A stretch of DNA of 64,000 bases, taken from Thermodesulfovibrionales bacterium (GTDB taxonomy: Bacteria > Nitrospirota > Thermodesulfovibrionia > Thermodesulfovibrionales > SM23-35). Every line of letters starts with the position of its first letter. The first letter of the stretch is position 1. The translations under genes and the position numbers were made by a program. Positions 18,076-51,082 of the stretch are shown here, one piece after another. The DNA is taken from NCBI GenBank assembly GCA_963753165.1, contig CAVWBP010000002.1, positions 272,301 to 336,300 on the forward strand, read 5' to 3'. The notes below the pieces were generated by a model. That model was not told the origin of the DNA. It was given only the letters and a program-made list of their open reading frames with translations, and did not search any database.

Positions 18076-19218
18076 TTAAATTTCAATGAGTTCATAGCTT
18101 CTTGTACCCAGCCCAAGCTTTTCCGCTGCCTCAAACTGGAGATGGTAGTCCCGTTCGCTGAGCTTGAACAGGATATCGTCACCCGGTACTATCTTTTTTT
18201 CGTCCGCAAAAGACTGGGGGAGCGGTGGGGCCTTTAAAAGCATATCAACGCTTGCCTGTTCGATTGATACGATATCGTCAGATATGAGAATCCCCTGGTC
18301 CTGTATCACAGGAACATCAGCCACCGGCATACAATCGCACTCAGGTTGTATTTCCGTAAGGAAATTGAGGTAAATGACCTTCTGAGGTTTAAATGTGTCA
18401 AGAACCAGCTTTGCAGCCTCGGCAAGAGAACGCATAAACCGCTGTTCATCACCCGGGAGCGAGAGCCCCCTGGACTGACAGACCCGTTCACACCTGCCGC
18501 ACCTCCAGCATTCATTGGTGTCCCATTCGAGTTGATCATCGACAAATTTTATTGCGTCGAGCGGGCAGATCTCCATGCACTGGTAGCAGAGCTCGCATTT
18601 CTCTTTGTCCCATGAAAGCATCCCTTCGCCGAGAGTGTGCATGGCGCCCCTGCCGCATTTCCACCCACATTCCCTGTGCCGGGAACTCACCCCGCCCATG
18701 GCAATATTTTTTATTGCGCCTGCGTATCCTGACTGGATATGACCCTTTATATGTGAGCAGACGACCATGGCCGGCACATCGTAGATGACGCTTGCGATGG
18801 CAATTTCCTTCAGGATGTCGATCCCCTTCACCATAATATTATCGTTCCCGTAGAGTCCGTCAGCCAGAATAACCGGAGCCCCTACAGAAAGATGATTGAG
18901 GCCGTTCTGGTTCGCAACGTCGAGGTAATCAAGCCCTTTGATTCTTACTGTATCAGTCACAAAGGGTTTTGCCCCGCATGTCCTGAGTGCTTCTACCACC
19001 TTTCTCAAGAAAACCGGTCGTATGATCCTGTGCGCCCCTTCAGAACCCAGATGGGTCTTTATTGCGACCCATTCCTGCGGTCCGCAATACTTCGAAAGAT
19101 TGAATTCTTTGAGAAGCCGTTCGAGTTTGCCGGGCATACTGTCATCGTACTTCCATTTTTTTGCCCGTGCAGATGCAAAAAATACCTGTGACATTGGAAA
19201 ATCCTCCTCTGACGTCAT
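18076..19218 (-). CDS. DUF362 domain Fe-S protein (likely start 19194)
   Basis: AIKTHLGSEG, KPFVTDT, SHIKGH...GAIKN.AMG, two CxxCxxCxxxC ferredoxin motifs, PECDC. Confidence 0.88.
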   Translation of the reverse strand: MTSEEDFPMSQVFFASARAKKWKYDDSMPGKLERLLKEFNLSKYCGPQEWVAIKTHLGSEGAHRIIRPVFLRKVVEALRTCGAKPFVTDTVRIKGLDYLDVANQNGLNHLSVGAPVILADGLYGNDNIMVKGIDILKEIAIASVIYDVPAMVVCSHIKGHIQSGYAGAIKNIAMGGVSSRHRECGWKCGRGAMHTLGEGMLSWDKEKCELCYQCMEICPLDAIKFVDDQLEWDTNECWRCGRCERVCQSRGLSLPGDEQRFMRSLAEAAKLVLDTFKPQKVIYLNFLTEIQPECDCMPVADVPVIQDQGILISDDIVSIEQASVDMLLKAPPLPQSFADEKKIVPGDDILFKLSERDYHLQFEAAEKLGLGTRSYELIEI

Positions 19219-19315
19219 TCAGTTATGATTGACAGAACTGTTTGTTTCTCATTATAGCAATTGTAAGGAATTCTGTGATATTCCGGCGATACTCTTTTTC
19301 ATACTGTTCAGGAAG

Positions 19316-19482
19316 AATGGGCAGGGATCAATTTCCAAATCGAAATAAACTCCCTCTGTTTCTCTGCAAATCTTTCTTTGACTTCAATGTGAGTGAAGTA
19401 TTGAAAGCTGAGACCTCCGCTTCGTCGCCGGTCTCTTCGAAGTTGCCCGTGATTTCGTTTCGGAAATCGAACCCGGCACATT
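19316..19482. repeat. Dispersed ~166-nt element, copy A (terminal inverted repeats 25/31 matched; internal hairpin GAGACC/GGTCTC)
   Basis: Aligns by eye with copies at 26605-26769 and 50510-50677; shared TAAACT(A/C)CC, TCCGCTTCGTC and CCCGTGATTT blocks. Confidence 0.85.
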
Positions 19483-19625
19483 ACTATAAGGCATGAGGAT
19501 ATAAACATTCTCCTTCTCCTTTTTTGAAAAAATGTATCTGAATAAATTTCCGATATATGTCGGGATTGTGAAAATTCGTTATTTTTGGGGGATGCGAATT
19601 ATAAATTGTGGTAAGATGAAACACC

Positions 19626-21233
19626 ATGCAGAAAGAGTTCACTGATTTTCTCATTATCGGAAGCGGTGTTGCCGGGCTCAGGGCTGCAATAGAGCTTGCA
19701 CCCTACGGCAACGTGCTTGTCGTGACAAAAGACAGACCTGCGGAAAGCAGCACAGAATATGCGCAGGGAGGAATCGCGGTCGCCCTGAGCGATGAAGATG
19801 AAGTGGGGATCCATTCTGAAGATACCCTCCGGGCGGGAGACGGCTTGTGCAGGGAAGCGGCGGTCAAGATTCTTGTGGAAGAAGGTCCCGAAAGGATACT
19901 CGAACTCATTTCGTGGGGAGCAGCGTTCGATAAAGAAGGGACAAAGCTCGACTTTACCATGGAGGCGGCGCATTCCCGGAAAAGGATTCTGCATGCCCAT
20001 GGCGATTCGACCGGCAAAGAACTGGAAAGGGTGCTGCTTACAAAAGCCAGGTCATTTGCTTCGGTCAAAAAATATCCCTTTGCGTTTACCGAGGACCTCA
20101 TTATCAGGGATGGAGTCTGCAATGGCGCCTATGTCGTAATGGGATCAGAGACAAGGGCGCTTTTTGCAAAGTCGACTGTGCTTGCGACGGGAGGCACAGG
20201 ACAGGTCTTCCTGCGGACGACAAACCCCGCTGTTGCAACAGGAGACGGGATCGCGATTGCATTCCGTGCCGGCGCAGTTATCGAAGACATGGAATTCATC
20301 CAGTTCCATCCCACTGTTCTCTTTGCGCCCTCAGCGCCCCAGTTCCTGCTCAGTGAGGCGATGAGAGGAGAAGGAGCGACCCTCAGAAATATTCACAAAG
20401 AACCATTCATGAAAAGCTATCATCCTGATGCTGAACTTGCACCCAGAGATGTCGTATCCCGGGCGATTATTTCACAAATGGTGAGAACAAAGAGTACTCA
20501 TGTCTATCTGGACCTCACCCACATGGACCCGGATTTTGTCAAAAAAAGATTCCCGAGGATCTATGCCACCTGTTTGCAATACGCCGTTGATATCACGAAG
20601 GAACTTGTTCCCGTCTCTCCTGCGGCGCATTACGTTATGGGCGGCATCAAGACCGATATGACCGGTGCAACCAGTATCGGAGGGCTTTTTGCCGCAGGAG
20701 AAGTAACCTGCACCGGGGTGCACGGAGCGAACAGGCTCGCATCCAACAGTCTGCTTGAAGGTCTGGTGTTCGGAGCCCGGACAGGACGGGCAGCAGCCCT
20801 GTATGGTATCCGGAGAACAGAGAGAGAATTATATGCCGGGAGTGAGAGGGGCCGGAAAGATGCGGGGACGGAGAAGGGGCGGGACGCTCACCCTAAGGGG
20901 AGTGGTTTTAACAGTGAGGAAATCCGGCATTTATTGCGCAAGACGATGTGGGAGAAGGTGGGCATCATACGATGCGGAAAATCCCTCTCGGAGGCGCAGG
21001 CTCAGCTGAATCAGTGGTCTTTCATTCTCAGCAGGAACTACCGAACGAGACGTGAACTGGAACTGAAAAATTTACTGACTGTAGCGCAACTTATTGCAGA
21101 AGCTGCATTCCTGAGGAAAGGGAGTGTCGGAGCCCACTACCGGTCGGACCACCCTGAAAAAGGGGAAGGATGGCTGAACCATATGAGGTTCACGAAGGAG
21201 GGAGACGGATTGAAGCATATCTTTGCTCCCTGA
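19626..21233 (+). CDS. nadB: L-aspartate oxidase
   Basis: IIGSGVAGL, YAQGGIA, EAAHSRKRILHAHGD, DMEFIQFHPT, PAAHY.MGGI, HGANRLASNSLLEG. Confidence 0.97.
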   Translation: MQKEFTDFLIIGSGVAGLRAAIELAPYGNVLVVTKDRPAESSTEYAQGGIAVALSDEDEVGIHSEDTLRAGDGLCREAAVKILVEEGPERILELISWGAAFDKEGTKLDFTMEAAHSRKRILHAHGDSTGKELERVLLTKARSFASVKKYPFAFTEDLIIRDGVCNGAYVVMGSETRALFAKSTVLATGGTGQVFLRTTNPAVATGDGIAIAFRAGAVIEDMEFIQFHPTVLFAPSAPQFLLSEAMRGEGATLRNIHKEPFMKSYHPDAELAPRDVVSRAIISQMVRTKSTHVYLDLTHMDPDFVKKRFPRIYATCLQYAVDITKELVPVSPAAHYVMGGIKTDMTGATSIGGLFAAGEVTCTGVHGANRLASNSLLEGLVFGARTGRAAALYGIRRTERELYAGSERGRKDAGTEKGRDAHPKGSGFNSEEIRHLLRKTMWEKVGIIRCGKSLSEAQAQLNQWSFILSRNYRTRRELELKNLLTVAQLIAEAAFLRKGSVGAHYRSDHPEKGEGWLNHMRFTKEGDGLKHIFAP

Positions 21234-26406: not shown

Positions 26407-26568
26407 ATGAGCAAATACCGCTGCAAAATATGCGGATACATCTATGACCCGGCAGAGGGAGACCCCGACGGGAATGTTCCGCCCGGCACACCGTTCGAGA
26501 ACCTGCCGGAAGACTGGAAGTGCCCGGTATGCGGTGCGGCGAAGGAGGAATTCGAGGAGATCGGGTAG
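26407..26568 (+). CDS. Rubredoxin
   Basis: [13 protein letters not shown]...PGTPFE.LP.DW.CPVCGA; RBS AAGGAG upstream. Confidence 0.96.
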
Positions 26569-26604
26569 GATTTCACTTGCCTGACCTATGAATTAATAGG
26601 CATA

Positions 26605-26769
26605 AGGGATATCGCTCAATTTACGAACCGAACTAAACTACCTTTATTTCTATGCAAACCTTTCTCTGACTGCAATGATATTGAAATATTGAAAGCTGAG
26701 ACCTCCGCTTCGTCTTCGGTCTCGTCAAAGTTACCCGTGATTTCGGTTCGCAAATTGAGCGGTATCCCT
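26605..26769. repeat. Dispersed ~166-nt element, copy B (terminal inverted repeats 27/30 matched)
   Basis: AGGGATATCGCTCAATTTACGAACCGAACT ... ATTTCGGTTCGCAAATTGAGCGGTATCCCT; hairpin 26698-26723. Confidence 0.88.
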
Positions 26770-26803
26770 ATATATTTGAACAAAAACAAACGAGCAATAA
26801 AAG

Positions 26804-48856: not shown

Positions 48857-50191
48857 TTATAATGAATATCCGCTTTCCCCGTGCTGCGATATATCAAGTC
48901 CGTTCACCTCCGACTCCTCGTCAACGCGCAGGCCGATCACTTTATCAATGAGTTTCAGCAGGACAACGCTAACCGCAAACGAATAGACTGCGGTCACGAG
49001 TATGGCAATCAACTGCGTATTAAGCAGCGCAAAACTGCCGAAAAATAATCCGTTGCCTCCTGCCGGGTTGATAACACTCTGTGCGAAGAGGCCGGTCGCG
49101 AAACTGCCGAGCACCCCGCCTACTCCGTGCACGCCGAACGCATCGAGTGAATCGTCATAACCAAGCCTGCCTTTTATATTCAGGGACGCGTAACATACCG
49201 CTCCCGCTGCCAGTCCGATGACCAATGATGACATGGGGCTCACAAAACCCGCGGCAGGAGTGATCGTTGCAAGTCCGGCAATCGAGCCGGTGGCTGCGCC
49301 GAAGGTGGTTGGTTTCCCCCTGTGCAGCCATTCGATGCATACCCATGCCAGTGTAGCGGCAACCGCGGACGTATGGGTTGCGACAAAGGCCATTGTGCTT
49401 AATGTCCCTGCAGACAGCGCGCTCCCGGCGTTGAATCCGAACCATCCGAACCAGAGGAGCCCTGTCCCCAGCACCGTCATGGGGAGGTTATGGGGATACA
49501 TCGCTTCCTGCAAATACCCTTTCCTTTTCCCGATAATCAGCGCTGCGGCAAGCGCCGAGATGCCGGATATCAGATGCACTACGATACCGCCTGCGAAATC
49601 CAGCGCCCCCATTTCCTTCAGCCATCCTCCTGTGCCCCAGACCCAATGTGCAACCGGGTCATATACGAGTGTCGACCACAGCAGGGTGAACACAAAGAAT
49701 GCGGAAAATTTCATCCGTTCCGCAAAGGCGCCGGTGATGAGCGCCGGTGTGATGACCGCAAACATTGCCTGGTACATCATAAACGCGATATGCGGCACGG
49801 TCGGGGCGTAGTCAGGGTTGGGTTCAACCCCGACGCCGTTCAGTCCTATCCAGTCCAGGCCTCCGATGACTCCGTGTATATCAGGGCCAAAGGCAAGGCT
49901 ATAGCCGACAAGGATCCACTGCACACTGATAATCGCAATCGCGACAAAACTCTGCATGATCGTGCCAAGCACATTTTTCCCCCTGACCATGCCTCCGTAG
50001 AACAGTGCAAGCCCGGGGGTCATCAGCATGACGAGGGCGGTGGATACCAGTATCCAGGCGGTGTCTCCTGAATCAATCTTCGGCGCAGCGGTTGTTTCCA
50101 GACCGGGCTGGAAAAGCTGATCTCCACCGAAAACGCTTCCGGCTGCGCCCAGCATGATGAGCATCAAAAGAATACCAACAAGTCCTTTCAT
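48857..50191 (-). CDS. amt: Ammonium transporter (Amt)
   Basis: [53 protein letters not shown]; RBS GGAGG before ATG 50191. Confidence 0.97.
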   Translation of the reverse strand: MKGLVGILLMLIMLGAAGSVFGGDQLFQPGLETTAAPKIDSGDTAWILVSTALVMLMTPGLALFYGGMVRGKNVLGTIMQSFVAIAIISVQWILVGYSLAFGPDIHGVIGGLDWIGLNGVGVEPNPDYAPTVPHIAFMMYQAMFAVITPALITGAFAERMKFSAFFVFTLLWSTLVYDPVAHWVWGTGGWLKEMGALDFAGGIVVHLISGISALAAALIIGKRKGYLQEAMYPHNLPMTVLGTGLLWFGWFGFNAGSALSAGTLSTMAFVATHTSAVAATLAWVCIEWLHRGKPTTFGAATGSIAGLATITPAAGFVSPMSSLVIGLAAGAVCYASLNIKGRLGYDDSLDAFGVHGVGGVLGSFATGLFAQSVINPAGGNGLFFGSFALLNTQLIAILVTAVYSFAVSVVLLKLIDKVIGLRVDEESEVNGLDISQHGESGYSL

Positions 50192-50240
50192 ACTTCCTCC
50201 CTGACATACAGGCGGTATTTTCCTCATGGTGCTTCTCTAT

Positions 50241-50317: not shown

Positions 50318-50453
50318 CCTACAATATTGTAGGTACGGTATCGGGAGTCTGCAGGGGAGCATAGATATTTTCCCTTATTTTTCAACATCCGGCGCGGATT
50401 AAGGCATGTCAAAGAGCATTCCTACAAATTTGTATGAACAACAAATTTGTAGG
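50318..50453. promoter_or_regulatory. Three palindromic sites, consensus CTACAAWWTTGTAG (50318-50333, 50421-50436, 50438-50453)
   Basis: CCTACAATATTGTAGG is a perfect palindrome; the same motif recurs at 53631-53664. Confidence 0.75.
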
Positions 50454-50509
50454 ATTGAGAAGAGATCAGTTACCTCTGTCCAAAATATTGATTCAGATTG
50501 CGGGAAAGC

Positions 50510-50677
50510 AAGGGATATGGCTCAATTTCCAAAGCAAAATAAACTACCTTTGAGAAATATCCTGGCTTCATCTGTATTGTAGTGTTCGTATACAATCCAG
50601 AGTTGAGGCTTCCGCTTCGTCTCCAGCCTCATCGAGATTGCCCGTGATTTTGCTTTGGAAATTGAGCCATATCCCTT
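50510..50677. repeat. Dispersed ~166-nt element, copy C (perfect 31-bp terminal inverted repeats)
   Basis: AAGGGATATGGCTCAATTTCCAAAGCAAAAT and its exact reverse complement at 50647-50677; hairpin GAGGCT/AGCCTC at 50605-50630. Confidence 0.9.
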
Positions 50678-50734
50678 CTTTAAAATATCCTGGACAGCAA
50701 TGATAACCAATAGAAACGAATCGGGAAGTCCGCG

Positions 50735-51082
<348 letters not shown>

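Follow-up and report, generated by a model that had tools for sequence, protein, structure and literature searches.

A miniature transposable element family of Nitrospirota carries an internal hairpin with a covarying stem and a conserved loop

Results

A repeat with an internal hairpin lies beside glnK and at two further loci

The window, by which we mean the whole 64,000-nucleotide stretch of Thermodesulfovibrionales DNA analysed here, contains three copies (A, B and C) of an element with an internal hairpin (Table 1). Copy A lies between two divergent genes (18076–19218 on the minus strand and 19626–21233 on the plus strand), and copy B lies directly 3′ of a rubredoxin gene (26407–26568, plus strand) and is followed by a convergent gene. 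Copy C occupies the spacer that separates glnK from a second amt gene. Both genes are on the minus strand, and the core of copy C is antisense to them, which is the minority orientation within the family. A transcript running from glnK to amt would carry the complementary hairpin, with the loop GGAGACGAAGCGGA, which would pair equally well. The target duplication is no longer present around copy C, and no empty site for this copy was found; in four metagenomes, every related strain has the element, with the hairpin unchanged.

The loop is 14 nt long in all three copies, which also share the core sequence at its start (TCCGCTTCGTC). Relative to copies A and B, the stem of copy C is altered on both sides at two pairs, A–T to G–C and C–G to T–A, and copy C has the most divergent interior of the three. 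Folded as single strands, the copies keep the hairpin on the plus strand (A and B) or on the minus strand (C), in each case within a long closing stem. The paired changes and the fixed loop had been described in an initial annotation of the window, and our reading of the DNA agrees with it on the two stems and their coordinates, on the paired changes around a loop of unchanged core and length, on the perfect terminal repeats of copy C (a perfect 31-nt inverted repeat) with its divergent interior, and on the location of this copy beside glnK.

Two other features of these loci were seen. Between copy C and amt, at 50420–50454, there is a 14-pair palindrome (TCCTACAAATTTGT...ACAAATTTGTAGGA) with a terminator-like score on the minus strand. 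In addition, an independent insertion of the element (L136:1130-1390), with a perfect duplication GTCTTTTAT and a core orientation opposite to that of copy A, lies upstream of an orthologue of the gene beside copy A, so that the same spacer has been struck twice.

Table 1. Positions of the repeat copies, their internal hairpins and the genes flanking copy C. Arms and loops are as read from the window.
Feature	Position	Strand	Remarks
MITE copy A	19300–19495	+	approximate extent, degenerate ends
Internal hairpin, copy A	19410–19435	+	type 1 stem; 5′ arm GAGACC 19410–19415, loop TCCGCTTCGTCGCC, 3′ arm GGTCTC 19430–19435
MITE copy B	26574–26799	+	approximate extent
Internal hairpin, copy B	26698–26723	+	type 1 stem; 5′ arm GAGACC 26698–26703, loop TCCGCTTCGTCTTC, 3′ arm GGTCTC 26718–26723
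amt, second ammonium transporter gene	48857–50227	−	downstream of copy C by direction of transcription
Whole MITE copy C	50471–50702	+	about 232 bp; outer left end TACCTCTGTCC (decayed) to outer right end GGACAGCAATG
Inner inverted repeat, copy C, left arm	50510–50540	.	31 nt, 100% complementary to 50647–50677
Internal hairpin, copy C	50604–50631	+	type 2 stem allele, including an additional outer T–A pair (50604/50631); 5′ arm GAGGCT 50605–50610, loop TCCGCTTCGTCTCC 50611–50624, 3′ arm AGCCTC 50625–50630
Conserved box CCCGTGATTT	50641–50650	+	
Inner inverted repeat, copy C, right arm	50647–50677	.	
glnK	50735–51073	−	stop codon and right end of copy C 33 nt apart

The repeat is a miniature inverted-repeat transposable element

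Further copies were collected with two search patterns. In one, the core of the loop was specified together with the box CCCGTGATTT downstream, and the stem was left free; in a public genome collection it returned 56 loci, 52 of them in Nitrospirota/Thermodesulfovibrionales metagenome-assembled genomes (MAGs; about 40 in a single MAG) and four in phoU of Comamonadaceae. The other was anchored wholly outside the hairpin and returned 107 loci from a public metagenome collection, nearly all of them true copies, in wetland, sediment and groundwater samples. MAG CAVRZG01 alone contains about 40 copies, others come from seven more genomes, and metagenome contigs contribute about 105; the family is spread through Thermodesulfovibrionales/Nitrospirota. 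The box is found a constant 9 nt past the hairpin, on the inner margin of the right inverted repeat, and since it was fixed in both patterns any estimate of its conservation is biased.

Conservation runs past the 166-nt unit originally seen, out to CATTGCTGTCCAAAATATT... on one side and ...TTTGGGACAGGTATG on the other. The element has the ends CAT...ATG, with the outer sequences CATTGCTGTCC... on the left and ...GGACAGGTATG on the right, and contains a second, inner inverted repeat of about 30 bp. This encloses a non-palindromic core of about 105 nt, comprising a 6–7-bp stem, a 14-nt pyrimidine-rich loop (UCCGCUUCGUCUUC) and the box CCCGUGAUUU 9 nt beyond. In end searches the outer sequences never occurred without the inner unit. 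A target duplication of exactly 9 bp was found in 16 of 49 scorable copies, perfect in seven and with one mismatch in nine (for example TCTTGTAAT, ATCAGGTTT and AACAAAAAT), and the outer ends, with these exact duplications abutting them, thus identify a MITE with nested inverted repeats. The other hallmarks of a MITE are likewise present, namely a short, non-coding unit (median length 230 bp, within the limit of roughly 600 bp), terminal inverted repeats, a target duplication of fixed length and many dispersed copies. The element is an uncatalogued, ~230-bp non-coding MITE of Nitrospirota. Near-consensus copies may have no target duplication, so that the duplication is unusable as a marker of age.

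Neither the window nor the 163 fetched loci yielded an autonomous insertion sequence sharing these ends, and fuzzy end searches gave no parent element. Two candidates for a parent were rejected: right-half-only copies at three loci (L103, L105 and L121) adjoin ordinary genes, and in L123 the 1.5 kb by which the copy-A locus differs is an HD-domain gene. BLAST searches for plasmid or phage relatives gave chance matches only, and our literature search retrieved no paper linking MITEs with Thermodesulfovibrio or Nitrospirae and none on such an element.

Some copies have additional parts. In a subfamily represented by L058, L078, L081, L092 (the + copy), L111 and L160, an extra hairpin (CCCGAAAGGCTAAAGCCTATTCGGG) directly follows the 3′ arm of the internal hairpin, standing in place of TCATCGAG, with five of the six stem pairs kept. 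A second small repeat of about 110 bp (GAAACGGATAGCGAGTGCATTCCCCGTCGGCTTGCCGCGGGG...CCCTGCGGTCTTTGCCGCAGGGTTCTTCAT) occurs in both orientations in or beside several MITE copies of MAG CAVRZG01 (L008:4330-4432, L030:1480-1612, L037:6873-6983 and the right flanks of L027 and L033); it has no Rfam match.

The same holds for the window as a whole, in which no Rfam (15) family, riboswitches and self-cleaving ribozymes among them, matched at the gathering score. When region 50440–50740 was searched at E values up to 10, the only matches were two plant/animal miRNA models (E = 0.59), which are chance matches to the long hairpin. A self-cleaving ribozyme was considered by eye on the minus strand, where UUGAUGAG and a stem precede CUCAGC, and was rejected: the hammerhead GAAA is missing, the AUG/UGA part is not conserved and Rfam gives no match. 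Copy C contains no sigma-70 promoter or terminator pattern, and by eye neither of its strands fits the sigma-54 spacing.

The hairpin stem covaries across the family

Among 132 distinct hairpins, the six-pair core of the stem occurs in four fully paired versions. GAGACC/GGTCTC is the majority form. About 16 copies, from the window and from four or more MAGs, have GAGGCT/AGCCTC; two have GAGATC/GATCTC; and a single copy has GAGCCC/GGGCTC, which involves a transversion pair. Both main alleles occur within the window and within three or more MAGs, making four genomes or more. One of the GAGATC/GATCTC copies, L142, has a perfect target duplication, from which it follows that this allele transposed recently. 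Across 116 aligned copies, three of the six core pairs have changes on both sides, in 41 cells compared with 7.1 ± 2.2 in shuffled alignments, and none of 500 shuffles reached 41. In the same 116 aligned inner elements, pairing stands at 93% in the true register compared with 17–47% in slid registers, and RNAalifold recovers the hairpin from the family alignment. Paired changes on both sides, in excess of the controls, are what is expected of a generic structured cis-acting RNA.

On a tree built without the hairpin columns, a single origin of the GAGGCT/AGCCTC copies is not rejected and they may form a single clade; the compensated pair changes then amount to at least four independent events, of which one branch accounts for two. 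On that branch, from type 1 to type 2, all four changes are transitions, and the chance of obtaining two doubly changed pairs with none broken is about 0.002–0.01, given a transition divergence of 15–33%. The initial annotation had taken the difference between copies A and B and copy C as direct evidence of selection on a stem that presents a conserved loop. Three copies represent one lineage event, a single lineage difference, and so are not direct evidence by themselves, but the claim gains support from about 130 further copies, which add two more independent compensated alleles. Stem substitutions lacking compensation, which had been named beforehand as counting against the claim, do occur: about one fifth of copies have uncompensated or wobble changes in the stem, a proportion of broken stems to be expected in decaying transposon copies. 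One of the unpaired combinations, GAGCCC/GGTCTC, looks like a half-step towards GAGCCC/GGGCTC.

Covariation was not confined to the hairpin. The long terminal inverted repeats covary as strongly, and an all-against-all scan, which was swamped by transitions and serves as a warning only, returned many unrelated column pairs with lineage-linked pseudo-covariation. Covariation alone therefore does not demonstrate RNA structure, and templated copying from arm to arm in DNA can also yield paired changes.

The hairpin evolves slowly and its consensus loop is the same in both subfamilies

A separate line of evidence comes from rates of change. Between the consensus sequences of the two main subfamilies, none of the 14 loop positions differs. 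The corresponding figures are 4/12 for the stem, where two pairs are affected, 3/10 for the spacer, 7/22 for the upstream part and 10/40 for the left interior; the sequence neighbouring the hairpin is about 30% different. When each copy was compared with its nearest neighbour, in the set anchored outside the hairpin, 7.6% of hairpin sites differed compared with 15.6% of sites elsewhere (p = 4e-17), and the left inverted repeat, at 12%, also exceeded the hairpin. The hairpin thus evolves about two-fold slower than the remainder of the element. Taken together with the stem alleles, these comparisons support a stem maintained by complementarity rather than by sequence, and a loop maintained by sequence.

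The insertion that gave rise to copy B is present at the orthologous site in three further loci (L013, L095 and L048), giving four sequences including the window. Between the window and L048, 26 of 28 hairpin positions are identical (93%) and the spacer and box are 90% identical, compared with 67–73% at third codon positions of the two flanking genes and 50–57% in the spacer outside the element; the test covers one locus and 28 sites. Because the ends of copy B have decayed, the conservation of its hairpin is not a matter of mobility. The hairpin has no deficit of rare private variants, by a measure that is weak in variable columns, and the constraint could accordingly act on lineages that are still transposing and not on resident copies. 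Overall these sequence comparisons show the constraint on the hairpin to be real, and selection on a folded single strand is supported. As the element is a MITE, 'selection' may here mean fitness of the element or benefit to the host.

The core is mostly sense-oriented behind genes

In about 100 copies with tandem or other gene contexts drawn from the fetched loci (L001-L163), the upstream stop codon lies a median of about 25 nt from the copy in tandem contexts, and this clustering of insertions just past stop codons suggests that the 3′ ends of genes are preferred targets. Of the copies between tandem genes, 41 have the core in the sense orientation and 10 have it antisense (p = 1.5e-5), a bias found in genomes (18:6) and metagenomes (23:3) and with both stem types. 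In contrast, the orientation of the outer shell is unbiased (11:10). The two can be scored separately because the shell is asymmetric, with a short and a long outer spacer, and in 15 of 52 scorable copies, copy C included, the core is inverted relative to it, a finding that implies either an inversion or a template switch between the two inner repeats. No orientation bias is expected from a transposase that works on symmetric ends, whereas selection on transcript content would give one; orientation is the best pointer to RNA. In the antisense cases of the same set of copies, the median distance to the adjacent gene is about 0 nt.

Family copies are contained in metatranscriptome contigs, which carry no strand information and may include DNA carry-over. 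Wobble pairs in the hairpin comprise about 6–7 G·T and 3 A·C events, too few independent events to name a strand. In the long inverted repeats there are 59 C·A cells on the plus strand compared with 18 G·U cells; a few lineages dominate these counts, which if meaningful would point in the opposite direction.

Discussion

The element described here is of an ordinary kind, an uncatalogued MITE, with an unusually well-behaved hairpin and an orientation-biased core that can be flipped. The reading that we favour as the most likely for its core is a role at the level of RNA, to which we would give about an even chance. The core would act as a folded single strand in RNA near the 3′ ends of genes, and we infer RNA to be the acting molecule from the position of copies about 25 nt past stop codons and from the roughly four fifths of cores between same-direction genes that are in the sense orientation despite symmetric ends. 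On this view the hairpin would serve in 3′-UTR or intercistronic RNA to bind a protein, to direct processing or to set stability, and would make sense-oriented copies tolerated or useful.

Alternatively, the hairpin might be a cis element for transposition that is needed as DNA by a transposase or host factor, be it as a site for protein binding or as an extruded hairpin of single-stranded DNA, such that only copies that keep it propagate and its conservation reflects the fitness of the element. We consider this possible but on balance unlikely. Selection among propagating lineages predicts the pattern of variation that is seen, in which the hairpin has far less shared, lineage-level variation than other parts while rare private variants are not depleted; the recently transposed L142 copy, with its perfect 9-bp duplication, bears a compensated stem allele, and the terminal inverted repeats covary in like manner. 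Yet a function confined to transposition does not predict a 41:10 bias of the core within an unbiased shell, nor the 93% identity of the hairpin across species in copy B, whose ends have decayed and which has no target duplication. The different stem sequences within one genome argue against sequence-specific recognition of half-sites, and we know of no DDE transposon with inverted ends for which an internal hairpin is a requirement, which also counts against a role in DNA. A reading that dispenses with function altogether, and which we think improbable, is that template switching during replication between the arms of a quasi-palindrome, together with shared descent, mimics compensation. Exchange between arms is suggested by the inner repeat of copy C, perfect over 31 nt despite decayed outer ends and duplication, and the cores flipped against their shells in about 30% of copies show recombination or template switching of this sort; lineage-linked 'covariation' at many unrelated column pairs and the restriction of the type 1 to type 2 branch to four transitions are in keeping with it too. 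What such a process leaves unexplained is the identical 14-nt loop between subfamilies with flanks about 30% different, the half-speed change of stem and loop, and the conservation of the orthologous copy. Templated correction should moreover lengthen the palindrome into the loop, which is not seen, and the GAGCCC/GGGCTC allele is a transversion pair.

We give very little credence to the idea that the loop is under codon constraint, as part of a short peptide or as the end of a parent transposase gene, whether active or a remnant. Its attraction lies in the loop, whose three most frequent variants (alignment columns 124, 127 and 130) are spaced by three and synonymous in one plus frame, in four spacer variants (139, 142, 145 and 148) that are synonymous in a different frame, in a near-invariant ATG/GTG about 45 nt upstream and in a 40-nt pattern match to phoU of Comamonadaceae. 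However, the two period-3 blocks require different frames and variable columns overall are not periodic to a significant degree; over six frames the synonymous fraction is 0.17–0.32 compared with an expected 0.20–0.25, and no frame stands out. Premature stops are present in 10–47% of copies in each frame, the stem changes are non-synonymous in the best plus frame, and the translated peptides have no Pfam match. The similarity to phoU was itself rejected as a chance match, as it concerns one orthologous gene in four related genomes, with about 0.3 matches expected by our estimate, and has no Pfam support. These matches (L009:5438-5477, L035, L039 and L046, in four Comamonadaceae genomes) lie on the antisense strand of phoU and have the motif ITGNLERAGDEADRI. 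A small share of the probability we give to none of the four readings.

Returning to the role in RNA, a much bolder form of it can be stated, which we regard as improbable. The core, consisting of the hairpin, the pyrimidine loop and the CCCGUGA box, would be a mobile cis-regulatory RNA module delivered by the MITE to gene 3′ ends across Nitrospirota and selected in the sense orientation as the place where a conserved RNA-binding protein or RNase docks or processes the transcript. Since it is flanked by 30-bp inverted repeats, and about 30% of copies are inverted relative to the shell, the core would be invertible in place; the family might then be a genome-wide set of invertible post-transcriptional switches, in which copy C, antisense between glnK and amt, would be in the 'off' state.

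MITEs are usually seen as junk constrained only at their ends. In this family the internal stem-loop is the best-conserved part: it covaries, holds its loop across subfamilies and persists in a copy that is no longer mobile, and the core around it is sense-biased behind genes. If the core does act in RNA, a single transposon-seeded signal would follow tens of genes per genome in a phylum that has been little studied, with a nitrogen-uptake operon among the sites, and would offer a tractable case of regulatory wiring by mobile DNA. If it acts in DNA, the hairpin would be an unusual internal requirement of a cut-and-paste transposon. On either reading the family counsels caution: when inverted repeats of mobile DNA change in pairs, this does not in itself prove that a functional RNA is present.

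Comparison with known repeat systems

Several known families resemble the element in part. Correia elements (CREE/NEMIS) of Neisseria are likewise derived from transposons, short and non-coding, and have long inverted repeats at their termini and many gene-adjacent intergenic copies; they too form a long hairpin when transcribed and have a conserved interior feature, which in Correia elements is an IHF site. They are 100–155 bp long with a TA duplication, whereas the present element is about 230 bp with nested repeats and a 9-bp duplication, is unrelated in sequence and belongs to another phylum, and neither a covarying stem-loop nor a core flipped in about one third of copies is a Correia feature. 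The ERIC/IRU repeats of enterobacteria, which are imperfect palindromes, are intergenic and co-transcribed with flanking genes; the effects of ERIC on mRNA are reported to be orientation-dependent, and the core of the present family is strongly biased with respect to the direction of transcription. ERIC has no demonstrated target duplication or transposon ends, however, its sequence is unrelated, and the effect on RNA in the present family is one that we infer.

A 9-bp duplication and ends starting CA(T) are shared with the IS4 family and its miniatures (IS231, MIC231), a likeness to entries of the ISfinder tables that serves as a lead only. IS231 and IS10 have regulatory stem-loops near one end; unlike these, the hairpin described here is not beside a usable start codon on either strand, and no autonomous partner accompanies it in the 163 loci. 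REPINs, which depend on RAYT transposases, are also dispersed, hairpin-forming intergenic repeats, but they are doublets of short REP palindromes that lack a target duplication, whereas in the Nitrospirota element the inverted ends are defined and abut duplications of exactly 9 bp.
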